The notes: generated by a model from the sequence alone, not told the origin. A DNA stretch of 64,000 nt from an uncultured delta proteobacterium (GCA_963745025.1 CAVUWD010000016.1:608001-672000); one strand, 5' to 3'. Positions 1,385 to 35,167 are shown, counted from the first letter of the stretch. Numbers and translations: made by a program.

Positions 1385-2795
1385 ATGGTCGGCATCGTCT
1401 CCTACGGTTCTTACGTGCCCTACCGCCGTCTCAAGCGGTCGGCGATCGCACAAGTCCTCGGAATTCCCGCCAGCAAGGGGGAGCGGGCGGTGGCGAGCTT
1501 CGACGAGGATAGCGTGTCGATGGGCGTCGAGGCAGCGCGCGATGCGTTGCGAGCGACTTCGGCCCCATCGGTCCAGGCGCTGTTCTTCGCGACGACGACC
1601 CCGCCGTACGGCGAGAAGCTGCACGCGGCGATCGTCGGCGCCGCGGCCCGCTTGCCGGTCGAGATTCGCGCCGCGGATTCGACCGGTTCCGTCCGCGCCG
1701 GCCTCGGCGCCCTGCTCCAGGCATCGGACAGCGTGGGCGGTGGCGCGAAGCAGGCGCTGGCCGTGATCGCGGATTGCCGACTCGGCGCGCCCGAGGGTAA
1801 AGCCGAGCAGCAGAACGGCGACGGCGCGGTCGCGTTCGTGCTCGGCTCGGAGAACGTCATCGCGGAGATCGAGGCGAGCGCGTCGCTGACGCGCGAGTTC
1901 CTCGATACTTGGCGCGCGCCCGACGAGCGTTTTGCTCACACCTGGGAGGAGCGATTCGCCCTGACCCAAGCCTACGGACCGCTTCTCGGGAAAGCGGTGC
2001 AGGCGGTCCTCGCAAAGGCGAAGGTGACGCCGAAAGACCTCGCCAAAGTCGTGCTGGATTGTCCGAACCCGCGAGCGGTCGACGAGATCGCACGCGGCAT
2101 GAAGCTCGAGGCCGCTCAGCTCGCCGACCCGCTCGCACTGACGGTCGGGCAGACCGGCGCCACGCATGCCGGCCTGATGCTCGCTTCCGTGCTGCCGGCG
2201 GCGAAGCCTGGAGAGCGGATCCTCGTCGCCACCGCGGCCGATGGCGCGGATGCGATCGTCTTTCGCATCACCGATGCCGCCGCCCGCTACAAGCAGCCGC
2301 GCTCGGTCGGACGGCTGATCGAGTCGAAGGGCGACGTCTCCTACGGAAGCTACCTCAAGTGGCGCGAGATCATCCCGACCGAGCCGCCGCGCCGGCCCGA
2401 CCCCGACCGGCCCGCGGGACCACCGATGCTCCGGTCGTCGAGCTGGAAGTACGGCTTCGTCGGGTCGCGCTGCACGGCGTGCGGCACGCCGCAGCTTCCG
2501 CCGCAGCGCGTGTGCGTGAAGTGCCGCGCGTTCGACCAGATGGAGCCCTACCCGTTCGCCGATCGCACCGCGCGCATCGCCACCTACACGCTCGATCGGC
2601 TCGCGTACTCGCTGCAACCCGCCGACGGTCGCCGTCGTTCTCGACTTCGACGGCGGCGGACGGTTCATCTGCGAGATGACCGATTGCGAGCCGGAGAAGG
2701 TCGCGATCGGCGACGAGGTGGAGATGACGTTCCGCAAGCTCTATACGGCAGGAGGGGTGCACAACTACTTCTGGAAGGCGCGGCCGAAGCGGTGA
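1385..2795 (+). CDS. HMG-CoA synthase-like domain fused to a Zn-ribbon/OB-fold (DUF35) domain; frameshift near 2620
   Basis: YGSYVPYRRL, DEDSVSMGVEAA, GDGAVAF, CTACG..CVKC; after the shift the frame reads DFDGGGRFICEMTD..FRKLY..HNYFWKARPKR* (TGA 2793-2795). Confidence 0.8.
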
Positions 2796-6581: not shown

Positions 6582-7610
6582 TCAGAACACGCGGTAGACG
6601 ATTGCCGTGAAGCGAGTTCCCTGCGGGCGGTTCAGTGCGTCGAACTCGCGAAGCACCGACAGATCGATGAGGAAGCCACGGAGCACGGCCGTGGCGATCG
6701 GCCCGAGCATGCAGCCTCGCTCGGACGAGTTGCGGATGCGGCTGCCGTCCATGCGGTCGTCGCGATACTGGAAGTCGAAGAACCCTTCGATGCCGAGGTT
6801 TCGCGTATGGGCATGGTCGAGATGAGCAAGCAGCTTGAACATGGCCTGCACGGTCGGGCCCAACTGGTAACGCGAGCGCGTGGCGGTCGCGGGATTGTGA
6901 AAATCGTCGTTCTTGGTGGAGCCGGCGAAGTACAGCGACGGCTCGAAGAAGACGCCGTTGCCGATGCTTCGCAGGTGGACGATGAGATCGTTCGAGTACA
7001 GGTACGTGTAGGTGTCGAAGCTCAGGTTCCGCAGGCCCCCCGGCTGATAGTGGCCGGTCGGTAGGAACACATCGACGTCCATCAAGCCTGCAATTTTCAA
7101 CGCTTCGCTCTCGTAGATCTCCGGGAAATTCAGACCGGTACCCAGCGCCAGGTCGCTCGGGCCCGCGGTGGATGCTGCGGCCTTGCCGACCGCGAAATCC
7201 GTCGCCACGAAGGTCGGTACCGCTTCCACGAAGTGCTGGACTCGCTCGGTGCGGAGCGGTGTCAGCAGAATGATGCGCTCGACGAGCAGGTACGTGCTGA
7301 GATGGAAACGGCCGGGCACGGCGCGCCCGCGGTCGTCGCGAAGCGAATCGGCATAGTAGTATTGATTGTACGTGCCGAGAAAGAGCGTCCACGGCGGCGT
7401 ATCCTTGCTCTGCTCCTGCGTCGCGAAGGAGCTGTGCGCACCGTCCATGTAGGTCGCGAAGAGCGGCAACCCCGCGCCCTTGTGGATTCCCTGGGCGCTG
7501 AGATCGCTGCCCCTCCAGACGAGTGCGGCCTGTGCTGCGCCCGGCGGCCAAAAGAGCAGCGCCAGCGCCGCGAGTGCCAGCCGAGACCCCCGCCGAACTC
7601 CCTTTCGCAT
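6582..7610 (-). CDS. Exported outer-membrane beta-barrel protein (SphA/Phenol_MetA_deg-like)
   Basis: Signal peptide (AAQA), amphipathic strands, GPSDLALG and LPTGHY motifs, C-terminal YRVF. Confidence 0.6.
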   Translation of the reverse strand: MRKGVRRGSRLALAALALLFWPPGAAQAALVWRGSDLSAQGIHKGAGLPLFATYMDGAHSSFATQEQSKDTPPWTLFLGTYNQYYYADSLRDDRGRAVPGRFHLSTYLLVERIILLTPLRTERVQHFVEAVPTFVATDFAVGKAAASTAGPSDLALGTGLNFPEIYESEALKIAGLMDVDVFLPTGHYQPGGLRNLSFDTYTYLYSNDLIVHLRSIGNGVFFEPSLYFAGSTKNDDFHNPATATRSRYQLGPTVQAMFKLLAHLDHAHTRNLGIEGFFDFQYRDDRMDGSRIRNSSERGCMLGPIATAVLRGFLIDLSVLREFDALNRPQGTRFTAIVYRVF

Positions 7611-24433: not shown

Positions 24434-24507
24434 GCCCCCGTAGCTCAGGTGGATAGAGCACAGGATTCCTAATCCTGGGGTCGCGCGTTCGAGTCGCGCC
24501 GGGGGCA
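24434..24507 (+). tRNA. tRNA-Arg(CCT)
   Basis: Acceptor stem GCCCCCG/CGGGGGC, D-arm TAGCTCAGGTGGATAGAGC, anticodon arm CAGGA-TTCCTAA-TCCTG, T-loop GTTCGAGTC; CCA not encoded. Confidence 0.97.
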
Positions 24508-24554
24508 TTGATATTTCAGGCACTTGCGTTCTTCTCCTCACCGCCCTCGCCCTC

Positions 24555-24586
24555 AAAGTGTCCAGAAAGTGTCCACGACGGTCCAC
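24555..24586 (+). repeat. Direct-repeat triplet, left end of element 1 (candidate arm-type sites)
   Basis: aaagtgtccag / aaagtgtccac / gacggtccac. Confidence 0.75.
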
Positions 24587-24628
24587 AGAGGAACTTCGTG
24601 AAGGCGGCGACGGCGGTGCGCGGCCGAC

Positions 24629-25006
24629 GTGCTGATTCCTACCGACGCCAAGGTCGTTCGGACCTTCACGATCCCTCGACCGGAGGGTCCGACCTCTCGC
24701 GCGCTATGCCGCGCTTGCGACCTTCCCCACACGGATCTCCTCTGCTCCCACTTCGTCCACGTCGGGATCAAGGGGTTGCGCAATAGCGTCGAGGCATACA
24801 AACGCGACTTCGTGGAGGCGCTCTGCGACCGCGGCGAGCAAGAGCGGCTGAACAGCGCATGGGTGCAATGCGTCGCGGGCGGCAATCCTTGCTGGCAACG
24901 CCGTGTGGAGATCGAGGATCTTGATTTCGCCCTCGAGGTCGCCGGACTCCCGGCGGAGTTCACGGTAGCGCGCCCCTCCCCGACGGGCCCGATGATTTTT
25001 GTTTGA
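24629..25006 (+). CDS. Hypothetical Cys-rich protein (possibly a fragment)
   Basis: 125-aa ORF inside element 1 with CRAC..CSH..C..C; no family recognised. Confidence 0.35.
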   Translation: MLIPTDAKVVRTFTIPRPEGPTSRALCRACDLPHTDLLCSHFVHVGIKGLRNSVEAYKRDFVEALCDRGEQERLNSAWVQCVAGGNPCWQRRVEIEDLDFALEVAGLPAEFTVARPSPTGPMIFV

Positions 25007-25324
25007 CGGGCGCCTTGTCCGTGCGCCGCCGTAGACACGGGAGTGTCGAAGGACGAATATCGGAGCGTTACGTCAACCAGGCCGCTTGTCCTGGCTAACC
25101 TCTATGAGTGGAGAATCGATCCGGATCGACAGAGTTCTGACGACCCGCTCGCGATTCGTGTGCTCATGAACGCCACCGACTTTTAAAGAGAGCGCGAGTC
25201 TTTACCTATCTCGGCGAACGCTGCGGGTGGTGGGACGGTGGTAACAAAAAGCCATGAGTCGATGAGATCAACAGATTTAATTGTCGATGATCAGTGTTTC
25301 TTTGCGGATCATGGATGAAGGCGC

Positions 25325-25675
25325 ATGAAGGGGCCATCGTTCGTGTGGTTTATGGGAATCACCGCGATGTTCGCGTTGTTCAGCAGCTGCGCGTTCTTCA
25401 GCCATCAACCGACCGGCCATATCTCGGTGAAAGCGGTTTCTTGGAAGCTGGTCCAACAATACGCTGAACCTGAGGCCGGATTGGTGGGGCACAAGATAAC
25501 GATCATCGATCCTTCGGACGGCCGAGTCGTTGCGGAGAAGCTAACGGATAATCTTGGATACGCCATCTTCGACGTGCCCGCTGGCAGCTATACCATAGAG
25601 GGTATCGGCGGTGAGCCTCAAAATGTCATTGTTTCGCCGGGTCAGACAGTCGGGTTTAAGTTGATCGTGCATTAG
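25325..25675 (+). CDS. Putative lipoprotein with a transthyretin/carboxypeptidase-regulatory-like beta-sandwich
   Basis: Lipobox-like FSSC, TDNLGYAIFDVPAGSYTI; lower GC than the flanks. Confidence 0.65.
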   Translation: MKGPSFVWFMGITAMFALFSSCAFFSHQPTGHISVKAVSWKLVQQYAEPEAGLVGHKITIIDPSDGRVVAEKLTDNLGYAIFDVPAGSYTIEGIGGEPQNVIVSPGQTVGFKLIVH

Positions 25676-26029
25676 TGCCATCTGAAGTGGACGACACAGG
25701 TCGGTCCGGTCCTAGCGCCGCGCGCGAAAGAGGAACCGCGACGGCGCGCGAGGCCGGCTCCCCTGCCCTCTTCGATCGCCGAATCCCGAGCAGGGAGCGT
25801 CCGGTTTATCAACCGGATGGTCCGCCAGAAAACTGTCGCGCGCCCGAGCCCTTTGGGAGCGAGTCGAAAAAACACGAGCCGCGGAGGCGAGCATATTCCT
25901 GTCCGTTGCTACACCCGACCACCGGGGAACCCCACGGGTCGCCCCCCGGTCTGCTAAGTAAGGGGGCCCCCTTCCCGCCTCTCGGCGGCGAGTTTCTCAT
26001 GCGAAAGACATCCGGCGACTCCTGCCGTC

Positions 26030-26062
26030 GAGGTGTCCACCGGGTGTCCACGAGGTGTCCAC
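26030..26062 (+). repeat. Direct-repeat triplet, right end of element 1 (candidate arm-type sites)
   Basis: gaggtgtccac / cgggtgtccac / gaggtgtccac, 11-bp period. Confidence 0.8.
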
Positions 26063-26167
26063 CGTGAGCTTTCTTGACCGACGTTGACCTACTACCCGCA
26101 CGGGCTAAACGTCGATTTGCCGCTGTGATACGCTCCGAGCTGCCTTGGCGTGAGCCGGCGCGCTTGT

Positions 26168-26209
26168 TTCCTAATCCTGGGGTCGCGCGTTCGAGTCGCG
26201 CCGGGGGCA
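26168..26209 (+). repeat. att site: 42-bp copy of the tRNA-Arg 3' half
   Basis: ttcctaatcctggggtcgcgcgttcgagtcgcgccgggggca, identical to 24466-24507. Confidence 0.97.
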
Positions 26210-26237
26210 CTTAGGTTTTTTGCTTCTGAACGTTTGT

Positions 26238-26265
26238 TTGACCAACTATTTTGACCAACTACAGC
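26238..26265 (+). repeat. Direct-repeat doublet, left end of element 2 (candidate arm-type sites)
   Basis: ttgaccaacta-tt-ttgaccaacta-cagc. Confidence 0.85.
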
Positions 26266-26291
26266 TTTGAGAAGGCTTAAAGCTCCCGGGC

Positions 26292-26590
26292 TCATCCTCG
26301 GCCTTCTCCGAGAAGCGCCTGCATCTTCGTCGCTGCATCGTGCTTCATTCTGTCGACGACGTGCTGTAGATGACCGTCGTCGATATTTGGCTATGGCCGA
26401 GCATCTGCATGATGGTGCGCTCGTGGACGCCTTGCAGGGCGAGGAGCGTACCCGCGGTGTGGCGGAGGTCGTGAAAGCGCACGGCTGGCAGCCCCGCACT
26501 CTTGAGCAGCGCCTTGAAGTCGCGTCGGAGGTTCCGCGGATGGATCGGCGTCCCGAGTGTGGTCGTGAAAACGAGGCCGTGCTACCATCC
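26292..26590 (-). pseudogene. Tyrosine recombinase/integrase C-terminal remnant
   Basis: HGLVFTTTLGTPIHPRNLRRDFKALLKSAGLPAVRFHDLRHTAGTLLALQGVHERTIMQMLGHSQISTTVIY (HxxR, LGH, Y); upstream in-frame stop and downstream frameshift. Confidence 0.9.
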
Positions 26591-26938
26591 AGCCTTCCTT
26601 GCGGCGGACGACCGATTTCCGGATGCGCACTTCCTCGCGGTATGGGGCGGAGAAGGCGAGTTCGACGAGCTCGAACGGGGGCGCCACAGTGATGAAGGCC
26701 AAAAGTGCGCGGATGAGAAGTGCAAGGCCGCCGCGGCGAACGTCGAAGCGGTCTACGATGAGCTAGAGCGGCGCACCTACGAATTCCTCGACCTCGGCTG
26801 GATTTATGACGCAAAGAACGCCGACCCCGAAGGCTTCGAGGCGCGCATGACGGCGGGCGATCGTCTCGTCGGAATTCCGACTCGCGATGAACTCCTCGAG
26901 GCGAGACGCGCGGCGGGGCTGGCAGCGGAGGTGATGCA

Positions 26939-27166
26939 GTGAGCCCGGCATGGATCAAGGGGCTAAAGGAGACGCAGGAGCGCCTCATGGCGGAGATCAA
27001 GAGCCACTGCGGGCTGCTGGATAGCGACCAACCGGATCTCTCGAGGCTCAGGATGGGCGATCTTCGCAAGCTCGGGGTCGTCATGGACGACTACATGCAC
27101 AGCACGGTTGCGGAAGCCGAGAAGGAAGCGGGCGAAAACGGCGCCGGCACCGAGGTGACGCAGTGA
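26939..27166 (+). CDS. Small hypothetical phage-like protein
   Basis: GTGA overlaps with neighbouring short ORFs on both sides (ending 26942 and starting 27163); GGAGG upstream. Confidence 0.45.
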   Translation: MSPAWIKGLKETQERLMAEIKSHCGLLDSDQPDLSRLRMGDLRKLGVVMDDYMHSTVAEAEKEAGENGAGTEVTQ

Positions 27167-27513
27167 GCGCCGCCGCGCCAGCGATCAAGGTCGGCGACCG
27201 TGTTCGTATTTCGAAGGCCTGGCTCCAGCGGAACGGCGCCGTGAACGATCCGAAGATGCGCGGCGTCCAGTGGTTGCCACGCGAACGATCCGCAAAGAAG
27301 GCAGATTCGCCTCGATCAAGTTTGATGAGTGCGACGAGCCAGAGGAGTGGGGGATCGAGGCGTTCGTGTGGTTTCGATTGATCCGCGGCGGACTCGATGG
27401 AGTCGGGAGCTAGGGGCGATGGCCGTCAAGCTCCGCGAATGGCAGCGCGATGATGTTCGGCGACGGCTTCGCGAACAGGCCACGCCTGACGCGCGTGGGG
27501 GAGGTACCTTACG

Positions 27514-27816
27514 ATGAGATTCAGGAGGGGGCGTTTTTATCTACTGGCAACGATGGTCGCCCTTGCGGCCCTCAACCCGTTTTCACAGCGCATCGCTGTC
27601 GCTCAGATTCCGGATGCGCCCGGAACCTTCACAGATTCAGACGGGGACGGGGTGAGCGACGACGCTGGGGAAGCCGAGCCTCTAGAGAAAGGGGTTAAGC
27701 CCAAATCCAACGAACCCGCGCCCGACCCCGCTCGTGACACGATCGACGAAATGAACAGGGCCACGGAAAGGGCCAGCGGTACCCCGGAGCCAGAACCGAC
27801 ACCAAAGTGGGACTGA
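27514..27816 (+). CDS. Small exported protein, copy 1 (contains DSDGDG motif)
   Basis: GGAGG RBS, signal peptide (AVA), paralog at 34644..34913. Confidence 0.75.
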   Translation: MRFRRGRFYLLATMVALAALNPFSQRIAVAQIPDAPGTFTDSDGDGVSDDAGEAEPLEKGVKPKSNEPAPDPARDTIDEMNRATERASGTPEPEPTPKWD

Positions 27817-27824
27817 GCAAGGCG

Positions 27825-28106
27825 ATGTTCGGCGACGGCTTCGAGCAGAGCACCATTAAGGTCGGCCTTCTTCTAATCGTGCTCGTAGCCGCTCAGGGCT
27901 GCGCAACGCACGTCGTGGAGTCCGTCGCCGTCGTGAAGTCGGATCCGCGTTCTGTCATCGTGCATTCGCCGGGGAACGACGCCGCAAAGGCTCAGGAGGT
28001 AGCGGACGCCGAATGCGCCAGAAACTTACTTTTCGCGGTGGCGGTGGAAGCTGATCCCCACGAAGAGAACTACGTGTTCAAATGCGTCGACCGTTTCGGG
28101 AACTGA
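27825..28106 (+). CDS. Putative small lipoprotein (start uncertain)
   Basis: Hydrophobic stretch then AQGC lipobox; ADAECAR..YVFKC. Confidence 0.55.
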   Translation: MFGDGFEQSTIKVGLLLIVLVAAQGCATHVVESVAVVKSDPRSVIVHSPGNDAAKAQEVADAECARNLLFAVAVEADPHEENYVFKCVDRFGN

Positions 28107-28107
28107 C

Positions 28108-28707
28108 ATGCGCACGGCCGCGGGCTTCGCCCTGGTGCTCGTTTTCGCCGCCTGCGCAGCGCCCATGCCGCGCCCTGAGCCCGCGGCGCTGGAGGCGAGG
28201 GCCGAGCTACCTCCGCACGTCGTAGAGGTCGCCTACGGGCTCTACTCGTGCGAGCGCGGCTACGTCATCCGGCAAGGCTGCTGCATCTCGCTCGCTGACA
28301 TCCCGCCAGGGCCTGTCGTGGAGATCTCGAGCCTACCCTCGGCCGGCGACGGGGCGCCGAGAATTTGTCCGAGCGGCGGCTGCGGCTCCTACGTCATGCC
28401 GACCTATTTGACCTCATACTCGGCGCCGGCCTACGGATACCCCTGGTACGGCTACGGCGGCTGGCCCGGCTTCTACTACGGCAGCCGGTTCTGCGCCCCG
28501 CACGTGCGACGCTTTCGCGGAGGCGAGCTGGCCTTCGCCGGGTTCGGCTCGTTCGGGCGGGAGCGGAGGCTCGCGCCGGCCGGATTCTTCGGTGCGCCTC
28601 CGCGTCAGTCGCCCGCGGTGCGCCGCTCCACGGGCGGCAGGTTCTTCGCCGGGAGCTCGCGCGGTGTTGCAGCACAGCGCAGCGCCAGGGGTGGAGCGTG
28701 GCGGTGA
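28108..28707 (+). CDS. Putative Cys- and Tyr/Gly-rich lipoprotein
   Basis: FAAC lipobox, SCERGY..CC, CPSGGC, YGYPWYGYGG. Confidence 0.55.
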   Translation: MRTAAGFALVLVFAACAAPMPRPEPAALEARAELPPHVVEVAYGLYSCERGYVIRQGCCISLADIPPGPVVEISSLPSAGDGAPRICPSGGCGSYVMPTYLTSYSAPAYGYPWYGYGGWPGFYYGSRFCAPHVRRFRGGELAFAGFGSFGRERRLAPAGFFGAPPRQSPAVRRSTGGRFFAGSSRGVAAQRSARGGAWR

Positions 28708-28743
28708 AGCAACGCTGAACTTCTCCCCTACCCTTTTCGATTC

Positions 28744-28770
28744 TTGACCAACTATTTGACCAACTACAGC
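28744..28770 (+). repeat. Direct-repeat doublet, right end of element 2 (candidate arm-type sites)
   Basis: ttgaccaacta-t-ttgaccaacta-cagc, one base shorter than the left copy. Confidence 0.85.
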
Positions 28771-28880
28771 ATCATTCGCAGTGGAATCTATGGACGTGCG
28801 ACCCGAGGAGAAACACCTGAAAGCCAGGAAAAACGCGGATTCTGGACGGAGTGGAAGCCAGCGGAAATGCACTATTCGAT

Positions 28881-28922
28881 TTCCTAATCCTGGGGTCGCG
28901 CGTTCGAGTCGCGCCGGGGGCA
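28881..28922 (+). repeat. att site: third copy of the 42-bp tRNA-Arg 3' half
   Basis: Identical to 24466-24507 and 26168-26209. Confidence 0.97.
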
Positions 28923-29277
28923 TAATGATTTTGGCTACTTGTTCCGATGCGCGGACTTGCCATCTGAAGCTGTGCCACTGTAGCAGTGGCGGCCGGTGCC
29001 TGTCCCGGGCGGTGCGGAAAGTAGCCGAGCACGTCCCGGTGACGGTGCAAGCGTCTCCCGAGTCGCGGACGGGAGTGTGCCGATAACGGAATTGCGTCAT
29101 GGCGTCATCGTGTAGAGTTGGCTACGCTCTGTCCCTTATGTTGACGTGCAACCCCTCTAGTGTTTCCTATGGTCCGTGCCGGGGGCCTGAACGGGCATCT
29201 GGCCCTCCGCTCCGAACGAGAAAGTAATCGCCGGCGGAGCCCGAGATCTGCGGGCCGTTGCAGAGAGAGGAACCGCC

Positions 29278-30918
29278 ATGACTGCATCAGACACCTCGAC
29301 CGAACTCCGTTTTGAGCCGCCAGGGCCAGGATCGTGGGAGCAAGACCCCGTACACTTCCCGCGCCCGATGACGCGCTACTTCCAGGAGACGCATCCCCCC
29401 TCCTTCAAGAGGGGCACCAACGACTTCGCCCGCTTCTACGGGATGCTCATCGACGGCCTCCAGATCGCCTACGTGAACGGCTTCGGCTACAACCAGGTAC
29501 TGCCGGCTCCGGACGCCGAACTCCCCGGGCGCTTTCAGCGCGCTGAACAAGTCTTCGCGCAGAAGCTCTGGCGGGAGCAGCTTCGCGACTGGGACGAGAA
29601 TCGCAAACCATCCTCCATTGCCACGCACCGGGAGCTGCAGGCCGTCAATCCGGACGCCCTCTCCGACGCGGAGCTGGTCGCCTATCTGACGCGCTGTCGC
29701 GACCACCATTCGGCCATGATCGCCCAGCACATGCGCTTCACCGCCGGTGCCGTGATCCCAACCGGGGACTTCCTCGCACACGTCGGGGACTGGACGGGTC
29801 TGCCGCCATCCGAGCTGCTGGGCCTGATGCGTGGTTCGGCAGTGGTGTCCTCGGGTGGCTCCGACGAGATGGAGCGCCTGAAGAGGACGTTCGCCCAGGA
29901 TCCCGCTGCCCGCGAGGTCCTCGCATCTGACGGCGACCCCGCACAGGTGCTCGCGAGCCTGCGTTCCCTCGGGGGCGAAGCAGGAGCGGCGGTCTCCGGC
30001 TACCTCGACTTGGTCGGCAACCGCCTTATCGACGGCTTCGACATCGCCGAGCCCTCGGCGCTCGAAGTGCCGGACGCACTCCTTAGGGCCATCCGCATCG
30101 CCGTTTCCGGAGAAGCCCAGGCCGCCTCGGACGTCGATGCCCGCATTGCCGAAGTCCGCGCCCAGGTCCCCGCGGCGCACCAGGCCCAGTTCGACGAACT
30201 GCTCGGCGAGGCCCGCCTCACCTACCGCCTCCGCGACGAGCGTGGCGTCTACAGCGACATCTGGGCCTCGGGCCTCATGCGGCGCGCCACCCTTGCGGCT
30301 GGCCGGCGGGTTGCGAGTCGCGGCCGCATCGCCACCCCCCAGCAGATGCTGGACGCCAGCCTCGACGAGATGTGCGCGCTGGTCGCCGGCGCTGGTGGCC
30401 CGTCCGCGGACGAGCTCGCCAAGCGCGCCGAATACCGCGCGACCCACACTGCCAAAGACGTCCCGCCCTTCCTTGGCCCGCCCAAACCGCCCCCGCCTGA
30501 CCTCGCGGCCCTTCCCCCATCGGTCGGCCGCCTCATGCGCGCGACCTTCATCGCCTTGGGCCACCTCTTCGGGAGCTCCCAGGCGCAGAACGAAGAAAAG
30601 ATCCTCTACGGGCTCGCGGCGAGCAAGGGCGTCTACGAAGGGCCCGCGCGCCGCGTCTCCGGCCCCAACGAGTTCGGCCGGATCGCCAAGGGCGACGTGC
30701 TCGTCACCGAGTCGACGACCGAGGCCTTCAACATCCTCCTCCCGCTCCTTGGCGGGATCGTCACCGACAACGGCGGCCTCCTTTCACACGCGGCGATCGT
30801 CTCGCGCGAGTACGGCATCCCCGGCGTCGTCGGGACCCGCGAGGCGACCGAACGCATCGCCGACGGCGTCCTTGTCCGCGTTGACGGCGATGCCGGCGAA
30901 GTCACGGTGCTTGGATGA
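29278..30918 (+). CDS. PEP-utilising enzyme-like subunit: helical substrate domain plus phospho-His swivel domain
   Basis: GLAASKGVYEGPAR, GDVLVT, GGLLSHAAIVSREYGIPGVVG, VRVDGDAGEV; no ATP-grasp domain. Confidence 0.88.
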   Translation: MTASDTSTELRFEPPGPGSWEQDPVHFPRPMTRYFQETHPPSFKRGTNDFARFYGMLIDGLQIAYVNGFGYNQVLPAPDAELPGRFQRAEQVFAQKLWREQLRDWDENRKPSSIATHRELQAVNPDALSDAELVAYLTRCRDHHSAMIAQHMRFTAGAVIPTGDFLAHVGDWTGLPPSELLGLMRGSAVVSSGGSDEMERLKRTFAQDPAAREVLASDGDPAQVLASLRSLGGEAGAAVSGYLDLVGNRLIDGFDIAEPSALEVPDALLRAIRIAVSGEAQAASDVDARIAEVRAQVPAAHQAQFDELLGEARLTYRLRDERGVYSDIWASGLMRRATLAAGRRVASRGRIATPQQMLDASLDEMCALVAGAGGPSADELAKRAEYRATHTAKDVPPFLGPPKPPPPDLAALPPSVGRLMRATFIALGHLFGSSQAQNEEKILYGLAASKGVYEGPARRVSGPNEFGRIAKGDVLVTESTTEAFNILLPLLGGIVTDNGGLLSHAAIVSREYGIPGVVGTREATERIADGVLVRVDGDAGEVTVLG

Positions 30919-32168
30919 AAAAGGTCGTCCCCTTCACGAAGGCGCGCGAGACATCGCTCTATGGGTCGAAGGCCGTGGGGCTCGGCGACGCCGCGCGCCA
31001 GGGCCTCGCGGTACCGCCCGGCGTGGCGCTCTCGGGCGACTTGGTCGAGGCCGTCGCCTCGGGGGAGGACAAGGCCATTGAAAAGGTGGCGAAGGCCGTC
31101 GCCGCCTTGCCGCCCCCGTTCGCCGTCCGGTCGTCGGCCGTCGACGAAGACAGCGCGGCGGCGAGCTTCGCCGGCCAGCACCTCACCGTGCTCAATGTCC
31201 ATTCGGCGGCCGATGTCCCCGGCGCCGTCCGCGAAGTCTGGTGGTCTGCGAACTCGGACTCGGCCATCACCTACCGCCAGCGTGTCGGCCTGTTCACCCG
31301 GCCGAGCGTCGGCGTCGTCGTCCAGACGCTCCTCAACCCCACCGTCGCCGGGGTCATGTTCACCGAGAACCCGGTCACCGGCGCCGATGAGCGCCTGATC
31401 GAAGCGAGTTGGGGCCTCGGTGAAGCCGTGGTCGCCGGCCTCGTCGTCCCGGACCACTTCCGCCTCGACCGTTCCGGCCAAGTGCTGGAGCGCAAGGTCG
31501 GGCGCAAGCGCATCGCGATCCGCTCGCTCCCGAACGGGGGCACCTTCGAGCAGCAAGTGCCACCCGCGCAGGTGAACCAGCTCTGCCTCGACGAGTCCCA
31601 GCTCGTGGCCTTGGGCGAACTCGCCCTGCAGTGCGAGAAGGTCTACGGCCCGCGGCGCGACATCGAATGGGCGTTCCAAGATGGGACGCTCTATCTCCTC
31701 CAGTGCCGCGCCGTCACCACCGGGAAGGCGCGCAGCGAGGCACCCCCACCGGGTCCGCCCCCGCGCGACCCCGTGGCCGCCCTCCGGCGCACCCCCTTCT
31801 TCGCCGATATGGACCGGAGGCAGGCCGAGCAAATCGCCCGCCTGCTCAAGGAGCGCCGCTTCGCGAAGGGCGAGACCGTCATCATGGAGGGCTCCGGAGG
31901 CGCCGCCTTCTTCCTCATCGACTGCGGGGAGGCCACGGTCTCGAGCAAAGGCGTCCACCTCGCCACCTTCGGCCCGGGCGACTGCTTCGGCGAGCTCGCC
32001 CTGATCGACGGCGGCCCGCGCGCGGCGACGGTGACCGCAGCGACCGACCTGGTTTGCTACGGGCTCACGTTCTGGGAGTTCCGCCCGCTCGTCGAAAAAA
32101 ACGGCGCCATCGCATGGAAGCTCCTGCAGGCGCTAGCGAAGCGATTGCGCGCCACCAACCCGGGCTAG
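30915..32168 (+). CDS. PPDK/PEP-synthase ATP-grasp domain fused to a cNMP-binding domain
   Basis: YGSKA, FAVRSSAVDED..SFAGQH, AGVMFT, SWGLGEAVV, DIEWA, LLQCRAVT; Pro-rich linker; FGELALIDGGPRAATV; ATGA overlap with the upstream gene. Confidence 0.9.
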   Translation: MKKVVPFTKARETSLYGSKAVGLGDAARQGLAVPPGVALSGDLVEAVASGEDKAIEKVAKAVAALPPPFAVRSSAVDEDSAAASFAGQHLTVLNVHSAADVPGAVREVWWSANSDSAITYRQRVGLFTRPSVGVVVQTLLNPTVAGVMFTENPVTGADERLIEASWGLGEAVVAGLVVPDHFRLDRSGQVLERKVGRKRIAIRSLPNGGTFEQQVPPAQVNQLCLDESQLVALGELALQCEKVYGPRRDIEWAFQDGTLYLLQCRAVTTGKARSEAPPPGPPPRDPVAALRRTPFFADMDRRQAEQIARLLKERRFAKGETVIMEGSGGAAFFLIDCGEATVSSKGVHLATFGPGDCFGELALIDGGPRAATVTAATDLVCYGLTFWEFRPLVEKNGAIAWKLLQALAKRLRATNPG

Positions 32169-32262
32169 CACCGGACCTTCAGCCTCGTCGACGAAACGAC
32201 CGCACCCCGCCAAGGTTACCGAGGGGATCCCGCTTCGATGAATCTCGGGGCGCCCCAAACAG

Positions 32263-32305
32263 CATGTTCCTGGTCCAAAGTGTTACCTATGTTCCAGGTC
32301 GGTAC
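32263..32305. mobile_element. Possible IS481-type terminal remnant
   Basis: catgttcctggtc-caaagtgttacc-tatgttccaggtcggtac: 25-bp-period subterminal repeat of the AAAGTGTTACCTATGT type. Confidence 0.45.
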
Positions 32306-32377
32306 TCCCAGCTTCCTTAGCCCGCAGCACGCGGCCGACCGGCGCTGTGGCGCGGGCGCGAGAACGATCCGTGCGCC

Positions 32378-33556
32378 TTACCCGGAGCGCCCGTCTGGTC
32401 GCGGCGCGGCGAGCATGGGCGCGTAGCGGATCACGAACGTCCCGTACGCGAGCATCCAGAGGACCCCGCTCGCCAGGAGACCGCTCGTCTGTGGCACCCA
32501 GGCCAGCGCCGTGGCGACGCGGAGCGCGCCGGCCCCGAGGACAGCGGCGAACGCGAGCGTCATCCCGGGCGGCAGGTGGAGCGGCCGGCCGGTGTGTCCG
32601 AGCGCGACGCGGCTCATGACGCCGAGGATGAGCGCCCCCGCCGCGCCCGCACCCGCCGCGTGGAGCCAGACCGTCGGCGTGACCGCGCCGACCGACGCCG
32701 CCGCGAGGAGTACGAGTGCGACGGGGATCCAGGCGAGCGCGACGTGGAGGATCCAGAGGAGCGGCTCGCGGCGGACGAGCCAGCCACGCCACAGATAGAG
32801 CCGGGCGGCGCTCGCCGCCGCGGCGACCGCCGCGATCGGTGCCGTCAGCGCCGGCGGCGCTTCGAACGAGACGAGCGGGAGGAGTGCGACCGTCGCCCCG
32901 ATCGCCACGGACTCGAGCCACGGCACGATGCGGACCGCGGCGGCGTCGCCTCCGGTTCCGCGGAGCCAGTTGCTCGAGAACGCGGGCGTGATACGCCCGC
33001 CGACGACGAGCATCAGCGCGACGACGGCGAGCATGGCTGCTCGGGAAAAGGCCGGCCGGTTCGTGGCGTGGAAGCCGACGTCCAGGAGCCACAGGGCGCC
33101 GAGGACACCGACGATCACGAGCTGGCGGTGCTGCTTCGCTGCGACGATCCTCCGTCCCGCGTCGAGGACGACGAGCGGCAGGAAGGCGAGGTCTACGCCG
33201 TGGACGAGCGCCGCCGGCAGCGCACGGCCGAAGAGCATCGCCAGGCGACCCGCGAGCCACACCGCCCAGAGCGCGGCGAGCGGGGCGCCGTGCAGCCGGT
33301 CCGTGCTCGTCCAGACGCAGACCGCGGTCAGCAGGAAGCCGGCGATCGCGGCCTCGAGGAACCCGAAGACCATCTCGTGCTGGTGCCAAAGGAGGGCAGG
33401 CAGCGCGAGCGGTGGCGCGAAGCCGCCGAGGAGCACGAGAAGCCAGGCAGGAACGATCAGGACCGCGAGCAGAGCCGTCGAGAGGAAGAAGACGCGGAAC
33501 GGGTACGCGAAGAGCGGCAGCGTCCCCGCCGGGGCCGCCGGGTGCAGGGTGTCCAT
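32378..33556 (-). CDS. nnrS: NnrS family membrane protein
   Basis: FAYPFRVFF, WHQHEMVFGF, GFLLTAV..W, GGRITPAF, EPLLWILH, MSRVALGHTGR, PRPDGRSG. Confidence 0.92.
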   Translation of the reverse strand: MDTLHPAAPAGTLPLFAYPFRVFFLSTALLAVLIVPAWLLVLLGGFAPPLALPALLWHQHEMVFGFLEAAIAGFLLTAVCVWTSTDRLHGAPLAALWAVWLAGRLAMLFGRALPAALVHGVDLAFLPLVVLDAGRRIVAAKQHRQLVIVGVLGALWLLDVGFHATNRPAFSRAAMLAVVALMLVVGGRITPAFSSNWLRGTGGDAAAVRIVPWLESVAIGATVALLPLVSFEAPPALTAPIAAVAAAASAARLYLWRGWLVRREPLLWILHVALAWIPVALVLLAAASVGAVTPTVWLHAAGAGAAGALILGVMSRVALGHTGRPLHLPPGMTLAFAAVLGAGALRVATALAWVPQTSGLLASGVLWMLAYGTFVIRYAPMLAAPRPDGRSG

Positions 33557-34415: not shown

Positions 34416-34643
34416 AGATGGCGAAGTGCAAGAAGCGCGACGGCAGCCTGTGCATCGGGCCGACGCCGCCGGAGGATTGTGTTCCGCTCGGGAGCGGCCG
34501 AGTACTATAGGATCACGTGGGACGTGGTGCCCGCAGCGGAGCAGTGATTTCCACGAGAAGAACCGGGTAAGTGATAGGCGCATTGATGTCCGGCGACGGC
34601 TTCGAGCAAGCCGCGCCTGGCGCGTGGGGGGAGGTATCTTACG

Positions 34644-34913
34644 ATGAGATTCAGGATGGGGCGTTTCTATCTACTGGCAACGATGGTCGCCCTTGCGACC
34701 CTCACCCTGCTTTCACGGCGCGTCGCCGTCGCTCAGACTCCGGAGGAGACTCCGCCCGGAACCTTCACAGAGTTCCTAAAACAACAATGGGCTAGGCCCA
34801 AATCGGATGAACCCGCACCGGACACCGCTCGTGACACGATCGACGCAATGAAAAGAGCCAGGGAAAGGGCCAGCGGTACGCCGCAGCCAGAACCGACACC
34901 AAAGTGGGACTGA
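34644..34913 (+). CDS. Small exported protein, copy 2
   Basis: Shares MRFRxGRFYLLATMVALA and ARDTID..ERASGTPxPEPTPKWD plus the upstream leader with 27514..27816. Confidence 0.75.
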   Translation: MRFRMGRFYLLATMVALATLTLLSRRVAVAQTPEETPPGTFTEFLKQQWARPKSDEPAPDTARDTIDAMKRARERASGTPQPEPTPKWD

Positions 34914-35167
34914 ACAACGCGCGACGGCTCGTCGCCGGCCGCACCTCGACTGCCGAGATCAGCGGGGCACTCGGCCGGCTCTCTTGAAAGACATGCTGTG
35001 CCGTGGTCGGCCTCGAGGCGCAGGCGGTCAGGGCGCGCCGCGACTAGAGCACCGCCAGCACGCCGAGGACGCCGTCATTTCCCCATGTCTGCCCGCTTTG
35101 AGCTAGCGGAACAATCCCGGCCGGAGGAGCCCCCACCCACGTACGAGAACCGGCAGACACGGGACGG

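Follow-up and report, generated by a model that had tools for sequence, protein, structure and literature searches.

The best described relatives of the gene pair analysed here are the two-component dikinase HpeHI and its homologues CreHI and PpsAB. According to the article that describes them (Dexter et al. 2025, PMC12167813), HpeH combines a substrate domain like that of rifampin phosphotransferase (RPH) with the swivel histidine (His), HpeI is the ATP-grasp subunit, whose structure was deposited as PDB entry 9GOJ, and the His of a T/SxxGGxxxH motif takes the beta-phosphate of ATP and hands it to a phenolic substrate. Two further enzymes invite comparison. RPH-Lm (PDB 5FBT, 5FBU and 5HV1) is a stand-alone enzyme with three functional modules on one chain, in the order grasp-substrate-swivel and without a sensor, and the mycobacterial GNAT acetyltransferase Pat carries an N-terminal, PKA-R-like cyclic nucleotide-binding (CNB) domain that places it under cyclic AMP (cAMP) control. 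Here, we describe a gene pair found in a 64,000-nt stretch of DNA from an uncultured delta proteobacterium (GCA_963745025.1 CAVUWD010000016.1:608001-672000, the whole of which is hereafter called the window), with the H-then-I organization of HpeHI and a cyclic nucleotide monophosphate (cNMP)-binding domain on its second product. On balance, this pair is probably a two-component RPH/HpeHI-type dikinase that is gated by cAMP, travels as a self-contained roaming cassette and uses an environmental compound as its acceptor.

Gene 1 (29278..30918, plus strand, as are all further features of the pair, its leader and its tail) is an open reading frame (ORF) of 546 aa encoding the H subunit. Gene 2 (30915..32168; ORF of 417 aa) encodes the I subunit and the cNMP domain. 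The two genes overlap by 4 nt, the start codon ATG of gene 2 and the stop codon TGA of gene 1 being combined in ATGA, and the ORF listing bore out the coupled pair that a preliminary description of this DNA had reported. The two-polypeptide layout, with H and I side by side, is kept in the 59 loci in which both genes are intact (the locus set is defined below), and single-chain fused relatives, both I-H and H-I, exist too. HpeHI, CreHI and PpsAB (and AcvAB) share with the window pair the H-then-I order, the separate polypeptides and the lack of a TIM barrel. Prediction of a complex between the two products returned 'no answer' (score 0.00, mark 0.32), which is uninformative either way; HpeH and HpeI also form no stable complex, according to PMC12167813.

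The product of gene 1 was modelled with AlphaFold2 on an alignment (A1) of 109 diverse relatives. The model (predicted local distance difference test, pLDDT, 96.2; predicted template modelling score, pTM, 0.94) was helical from about residue 33 to 431 and then continued into a beta-rich swivel domain. Pfam placed the mobile domain of phosphoenolpyruvate (PEP)-utilizing enzymes at residues 470-540 (E 2.4e-20). When the model was compared with the PDB using Foldseek, only RPH-Lm aligned with the whole chain (5fbt, 5fbu and 5hv1; E 6e-17 to 3e-12), 5fbt being the best match (E 6e-17, TMq 0.63, 18% identity), and the remaining matches were confined to the swivel. Gene 1 is therefore predicted, from the model and its Foldseek matches, to hold an RPH-type helical substrate-binding fold (residues ~20-431, 29335-30570), followed by a phospho-His swivel domain (residues ~435-546, 30580-30915). 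This is the arrangement that had been proposed, and the string SHAAIVSRE quoted for the swivel lies at residues 503-511.

The predicted catalytic residue, His504 (codon 30787..30789), ends the motif T496-x-x-G-G-x-x-x-H504 (TDNGGLLSH). We took the definition of this T/SxxGGxxxH motif and the role of its His from PMC12167813. H504 and G499 do not vary among the 109 family members, and conservation is at least 90% for T496 and G500. The residue two positions before the His is Leu, whereas PEP synthase and pyruvate phosphate dikinase (PPDK) carry a regulatory Thr there. The HpeHI group likewise has the motif and no regulatory Thr before the His. In a locus labelled Pseudolabrys (L066, ~7479-7480), gene 1 is short of ~97 nt corresponding to 30311-30409 of the window, which suggests an internal deletion.

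Gene 2 begins with a compact ATP-grasp (residues 1-272, 30915..31730), the 'I' subunit proper, recognized by Pfam and by its PDB match. PPDK_N was matched at residues 41-276 (E 3.9e-63), covering profile positions 79-318 of 328, and the best solved relative of this domain was HpeI (9goj_A, E 9.8e-39). Residues K19, R72-S73-S74, D77-E78-D79, E251, Q263 and R265 are invariant in all 40 aligned copies. The ATP-grasp is followed by a Pro-rich interdomain linker (residues 273-295, 31731..31799, read from the translation), which contains the string EAPPPGPPPRDP at residues 275-286 and was modelled with low confidence at 268-283. Together with the whole-chain alignment of gene 1 with RPH, the HpeI match supports the two-subunit dikinase logic that had been proposed for these domains, and by homology we infer dikinase chemistry. 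Selection differs along gene 2, as the median ratio of nonsynonymous to synonymous substitution rates (dN/dS, 78 loci) is 0.13 for the ATP-grasp, 0.32 for the linker, the highest of the three segments, and 0.18 for the cNMP domain, which is thus under purifying selection as well. In a locus of Acidobacteriota (L045, 7037-8043), an IS630-like element (ORFs of 321 aa and 137 aa, minus strand) breaks gene 2 after about codon 23.

Public databases give such proteins the automatic names 'pyruvate, water dikinase' or 'PEP/pyruvate-binding domain-containing protein'. The first of these names, and the presence of PPDK_N and PEP-utilizers domains, would fit an ordinary PEP synthase or PPDK split in two. 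We attach practically no probability to this explanation. The PEP/pyruvate TIM barrel (PF02896, PEP-utilizers_C) was absent from both proteins and from the scanned neighbours in Pfam searches, in agreement with its reported absence from the pair, and this missing domain refutes an ordinary enzyme of either kind. Furthermore, the first 430 residues of gene 1 adopt the RPH fold in the model, and the PEP synthase model NF005057, with a cut-off of 598 bits, gave only 92 and 165. More generally, NCBIfam models for RPH, PEP synthase, PigC/RedH and PRK08296 scored the pair far under their thresholds, which argues that it is a distinct subfamily and an orthologue of no named enzyme.

The C-terminal cNMP-binding domain (residues 296-417 and stop codon, 31800..32168) distinguishes gene 2 from HpeI as portrayed in PMC12167813, where the expression 'cyclic nucleotide-binding domain' occurs 0 times. 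PF00027 matched residues 313-396 (E 1.3e-15) with 57.5 bits against a gathering cut-off of 27.5. The phosphate-binding cassette reads FGELALIDGGPRAATV (residues 358-373, 31986-32033), and none of the 40 aligned copies departs from it at the cNMP phosphate-binding residues G359, E360, R369 and T372. Hence the ATP-grasp, Pro-rich linker and intact cNMP cassette of the preliminary description were all recovered by Pfam and by translation. Position 370 is Ala in the window (R-A-A) and Ser in the consensus of most relatives (R-S-A). R-A-A is the version of PKA and R-S-A that of CAP, both associated with cAMP; R-T-A is associated with cGMP. The closest PDB matches were the CNB domains of PKG and PKA-R (E 3e-28 to 1e-23), and the NCBIfam model of the cAMP-regulated acetyltransferase Pat (NF058543) matched residues 295-412 (E 4.7e-9). 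The resemblance to Pat extends to the fusion of a PKA-R-like CNB domain to an enzyme; the enzyme in gene 2 is instead one part of a predicted dikinase, with its CNB domain at the C-terminus behind the Pro-rich linker. Judged by these residues and matches, the cNMP domain most likely binds cAMP. A cNMP signal is available in the host: PF00211, the class III nucleotidyl cyclase domain, is matched 58 times in the genome that contains the window, and 56 of these matches pass the cut-off. As a count in its own right, this is an unusually large cNMP-signalling repertoire.

Barrels of the CRP/FNR type that bind non-nucleotide effectors exist, CprK and NtcA among them, and the C-terminal domain might be such a barrel, or a module that serves only dimerisation or docking. 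The phosphate-binding loop at 363-368 is of low confidence in the AlphaFold2 model and cNMP binding by this protein is a prediction, both of which leave some room for this explanation. Conversely, the ribose and phosphate contacts of true cNMP binders (G-E ... R-[AS]-A-T) are invariant or conservatively varied in all 40 copies, and genuine cAMP- and cGMP-binding domains give the best matches, so that we regard a non-nucleotide role as decidedly unlikely.

The sensor is an addition to the enzyme and not a general feature of it, because a related pair lacks the domain. This pair, on a plasmid of Streptomyces sp. NBC_01001 (NZ_CP108713.1), encodes a 569-aa 'PEP-utilizing enzyme' and, after a 4-nt overlap, a 284-aa 'PEP/pyruvate-binding domain-containing protein'; it shows 66.7% nucleotide identity over part of the window pair and is likewise uncharacterised. 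The fusion itself predates the recent spread described below, since a divergent copy in which the I-cNMP protein is 51% identical also follows an H gene (L097, G268:C178, 1371-3002). The H gene of that copy is 60-80% identical in three pieces across two frame changes, which reflect either a pseudogene or assembly errors.

The pair is a discrete, self-contained unit, a property that the preliminary description had not noted. A protein search returned 6783 matches at E <= 0.001 among 8000 scored candidates, and all 120 of the matches listed carry both PPDK_N and cNMP_binding, at 85-93% identity. Loci were drawn from contigs of one genome per species; 266 of 297 candidate stretches encode a relative, and the best 80 were kept (75-95% identity). 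When window positions 20000-42000 were compared with these loci by blastn, all 80 shared only 29168-32203, at 72.1-95.8% nucleotide identity, and flank similarity to the window was found in none. The shared unit therefore comprises a leader of ~110 nt, both genes and a tail of ~35 nt, about 3 kb in all. DNA beyond the pair was common only to loci of close relatives. The loci carry labels from eight phyla (Binatota, Methylomirabilota, Rokubacteria, Acidobacteriota, Verrucomicrobiota, Pseudomonadota, Chloroflexota and Planctomycetota), and the carriers include the culturable and harmless isolates Variovorax ginsengisoli CGMCC 1.12090, Variovorax sp. YR216 and Mesorhizobium sp. KR9-304.

Divergence of the cassette is out of step with that of its hosts. 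Gene 1 of the window is 92-96% identical to its counterparts at all five of the closest loci that were examined, while the RpoB of the window genome is only 58-63% identical to that of four of the genomes concerned; the fifth (G004) yielded no RpoB. For the three isolates, identity is 57-60% for RpoB and 77-82% for the cassette proteins. A comparison of 16 loci, three of them without a qualifying flank ORF, gave the same picture, as ORFs of at least 200 aa on the same contigs showed locus medians of 31-48% and a maximum of 62% against the window genome, compared with 77-96% for the cassette proteins. Synonymous divergence (dS) is only 0.08-0.17 for the closest loci, which bear labels of other phyla (NC10, Rokubacteria, Verrucomicrobia and Alphaproteobacteria), and reaches ~0.9-1.3 for the most distant ones; dN/dS is 0.10-0.52. 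A tree of the concatenated sequences (59 rows) was a shallow star with 13 changes of phylum label against a possible minimum of 7. Labels were nevertheless clustered beyond chance, none of 200 shuffles being as low, and therefore some vertical descent followed transfer. In 62 of 67 loci, the cassette is richer in GC than its flanks, the difference reaching 0.12 in low-GC hosts (r = 0.73). These comparisons show that the cassette has passed horizontally, in the relatively recent past, between soil and sediment bacteria that belong to many phyla.

Its distribution is patchy even among near relatives. The full cassette was present in 4 of 41 relatives of the window genome (that genome included), in 2 of 41 Variovorax genomes and, in a sample of the phylum, in 1 of 301 genomes, with one divergent copy in addition. 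The two Variovorax copies (96% nucleotide identity) have only the cassette and 81 nt upstream in common, and in a relative of the same genus as the window genome (G006) the DNA next to the cassette corresponds to a different contig of the window genome. No mobility gene or repeat was found to travel with the cassette in the set of loci. None of 72,556 plasmid records covers at least 80% of it, and 50,697 phage records held no full copy, only distant ATP-grasp or cNMP matches of at most 38% identity. An empty insertion site was found neither in five relatives searched with the window flanks, where the whole region is variable, nor in the 41 Variovorax genomes; the upstream flank of L046 matched no other genome.

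A mobile and patchy pattern across phyla is typical of resistance genes. This pattern, with a stand-alone unit that has its own leader, recent transfer between phyla and patchiness within genera, would suit an antibiotic-inactivating kinase, a split and regulated counterpart of RPH spread by the protection it affords against a common soil natural product; RPH is also the sole solved structure that aligns over all of gene 1. The pair is, however, no RPH orthologue. The RPH enzyme is a single chain, and the window enzyme is split, permuted in order and 17-19% identical to it, although the two share three functional modules, the substrate/swivel fold and a stand-alone existence. The RPH models scored accordingly low, NF041857 with 87 (gene 1) and 177.5 bits (gene 2) against 999, and NF000283 with 63 and 125 against 1700. 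The absence of full-length copies from the plasmid and phage records also speaks against such a kinase, as does its cAMP sensor, for which we know of no precedent on a resistance enzyme. We therefore consider this explanation rather unlikely.

The gene neighbourhoods bear on a different explanation. No recurrent partner gene was found; the commonest neighbour clusters reach 10 and 9 of the 80 loci and were judged by eye to be a dehydrogenase-like protein and an ABC transporter. A catabolic phenol-type kinase like HpeHI, CreHI and PpsAB would start the breakdown of a phenolic growth substrate by phosphorylation, and cAMP, a signal of carbon status, would couple it to the carbon supply. Such an enzyme would account for the shared H/I layout and gene order and for HpeI being the best solved match of the ATP-grasp, and control by cAMP would fit it. 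Yet the characterised systems lie in catabolic clusters, whereas no neighbour of the present pair is shared by more than 10 of the 80 loci, no catabolic gene is linked and the unit moves alone between phyla. The pair thus lies in no aromatic-catabolism cluster, a trait of the known members that is contextual and not structural. Both window subunits are also more compact (546 aa for H, ~272 aa for the ATP-grasp) than HpeH (71.1 kDa) and HpeI (40.6 kDa), sizes as given in PMC12167813, and the PRK08296 models of NCBIfam gave ~109 bits against cut-offs of 578-730. A role in phenol catabolism is accordingly unlikely in our judgement.

The unit begins with a conserved leader (29168..29277), delimited by blastn starts at 29168-29203 in the closest loci. 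From an alignment of upstream regions, with the sequences of 59 such regions as further evidence, we recognized a promoter-like core, with a -35-like TGGCCC (29200-29205) and a -10-like AGTAAT (29223-29228), and, after the 5'-untranslated region (UTR), a purine-rich ribosome-binding site (29262-29272). The core of the closest relatives is TTGCCC-N17-AATAAT. At the other end, the conserved tail after the stop codon (32169..32203) marks the 3' limit of the unit, blastn alignments with the 80 loci ending at 32140-32203. A scan of 29000-32400 for sigma-70 promoters and terminators gave 0 sites, Rfam gave no match within 28900-32500 at E <= 1, and RNAalifold predicted 0 pairs for 18 5'-UTRs. A short GC-rich inverted repeat around AGATC is present in the 5'-UTR of the window (29230-29262) and of 17 loci, with a register that shifts between loci. 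Since RNAalifold found no consensus pairs, this repeat may act as a DNA operator or have no function at all. In a genome without the cassette (L089, G011:C3, ~1440-1540, minus strand), 38 nt that agree fully with the promoter-like core of the relatives were seen ~60 nt upstream of an unrelated gene for a 356-aa luciferase-like oxidoreductase. This stretch was considered as a regulon motif and dropped, as one copy each was found in the window genome and in G011 and none in G006, G009 and G040.

Sequence words of the cassette occurred in sequencing runs of ~20 studies of soil, sediment and peat, six of which are RNA libraries. Contigs assembled from four RNA runs of three studies tile 29244-32166, spanning both genes. 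These contigs are compatible with expression in soils, though they are assemblies of mixed communities in which carry-over of DNA is possible. The RNA-library depth is 0 outside the cassette, a drop with no bearing on transcript ends because the flanks are specific to each organism and the cassette is common to many.

In the window itself, a tRNA-Arg(CCT) gene (24434-24507, plus strand) was identified by ARAGORN, and att-like direct copies of the 3' 42 nt of this tRNA (direct-repeat family D3) start at 26168 and 28881 on the same strand. The tRNA and its copies (24434..28922) delimit two segments that hold only small ORFs without Pfam matches, the hallmark of two insertions in tandem at this tRNA. 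The cassette does sit beside an integration hotspot, as first proposed, the last copy ending ~250 nt upstream; the pair does not lie between the copies. A tRNA gene was found at most 300 nt from the cassette in only 4 of 60 loci scanned, with one doubtful overlap in a further locus (L050), and mobility of the cassette is independent of this tRNA hotspot. Downstream, an NnrS gene and then a GDSL-like gene follow in convergent orientation, and small unknown proteins are also encoded nearby; none of the region around the cassette was found in relatives. The cassette and the NnrS gene lie between two direct copies of a repeat of ~330 nt (27497-27824 and 34627-34921, 88-91% identity), which are 7.1 kb apart. 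The repeat duplicates a gene for a small secreted protein (27514-27816 and 34644-34913), weaker copies of whose family occur elsewhere in G006 and G011.

Proximity to the hotspot, together with the mobility and patchiness of the cassette, recalls anti-phage systems. An effector of the Pycsar/CBASS type would respond to a cyclic nucleotide made upon infection by unleashing an activity that wastes ATP or phosphorylates a metabolite, and the cNMP domain does resemble the sensor of the PycTIR effector in PADLOC (E 2.6e-14 to 1e-13). That resemblance is restricted to the generic cNMP domain, however, and gene 1 had no PADLOC match. When the neighbourhoods of the 80 loci were checked for cyclases, a linked one was found in none, and the best matches of the cNMP domain are PKA and PKG, with a cassette of the type generally associated with cAMP. 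An anti-phage function is thus very improbable.

For the two-component, cAMP-gated dikinase that we favour, the following cycle can be envisaged. The ATP-grasp of gene 2 would bind ATP, and His504 on the swivel of gene 1 would attack the beta-phosphate and become pyrophosphorylated; the gamma-phosphate would be released as Pi and AMP would leave. The swivel would then phosphorylate an acceptor bound in the RPH-like helical domain by delivering the beta-phosphate to it. Binding of cAMP to the C-terminal domain would switch ATP loading or subunit docking on or off, such that the costly conversion of ATP to AMP would run only when the cAMP signal of the host permits. As nothing is linked to the unit and it works in eight phyla or more, it must have universal inputs (ATP and cAMP) and an acceptor that is either environmental or universal; and because only universal inputs are needed, the acceptor is most probably an environmental compound. 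Such a compound could be a toxin, an antibiotic or a phenolic met in the environment, which phosphorylation would inactivate or trap, and detoxification or trapping of an environmental hydroxylated compound is the role we favour, with scavenging as a further possible purpose. A bolder proposal is that the pair is an inactivating kinase gated by a second messenger, that is, an unrecognised resistance or detoxification determinant moving as a promoter-to-stop unit without a linked integrase, transposase or repeat; this proposal is tentative, and we would not expect it to hold in so strong a form.

Several observations weigh against the cAMP-gated roaming dikinase. Nucleotide binding, gating and the acceptor are predictions for this clade. 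The N-lobe of the ATP-grasp is ~70 residues shorter than that of HpeI, with only PPDK_N positions 79-318 matching well, and the AlphaFold2 model of gene 2 is only moderate (pLDDT 71, pTM 0.60), so that the geometry of sensor and ATP-grasp is not readable. Among the 80 loci, no cyclase or substrate-related gene is linked, and context gives no hint of the acceptor. The window leader differs from the promoter-like consensus of its relatives at two positions and fails the sigma-70 scan, and the RNA contigs, coming from mixed communities, cannot show transcription of any single copy or its start. As to the spread, the taxon labels of metagenome-assembled genomes are the submitters' own, and the genome of one of the loci (G001, that of L003) has two separate RpoB loci (contigs C16 and C96), its bin therefore probably being a mixture of two organisms.

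We found no paper describing the fusion of a cNMP domain to a split dikinase in a search that left subscription-only papers and supplements outside its scope, and databases carry automatic names only. A split dikinase as such is known; what is unusual, and unexplained, is how the cassette has spread across phyla. The question of function is directly testable, since culturable carriers exist (the two Variovorax and Mesorhizobium sp. KR9-304). Found in soil RNA libraries and at a different site in almost every genome, with proteins 77-96% identical where RpoB is ~60%, this 3-kb operon points to a strong, portable and as yet unnamed selective benefit in soils. Furthermore, two-component dikinases have been recognised only recently and are so far known as entry enzymes of aromatic catabolism. 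If our reading is true, the built-in cAMP sensor would be the first case found of second-messenger control over dikinase chemistry, and would represent a new output class for bacterial cAMP signalling.

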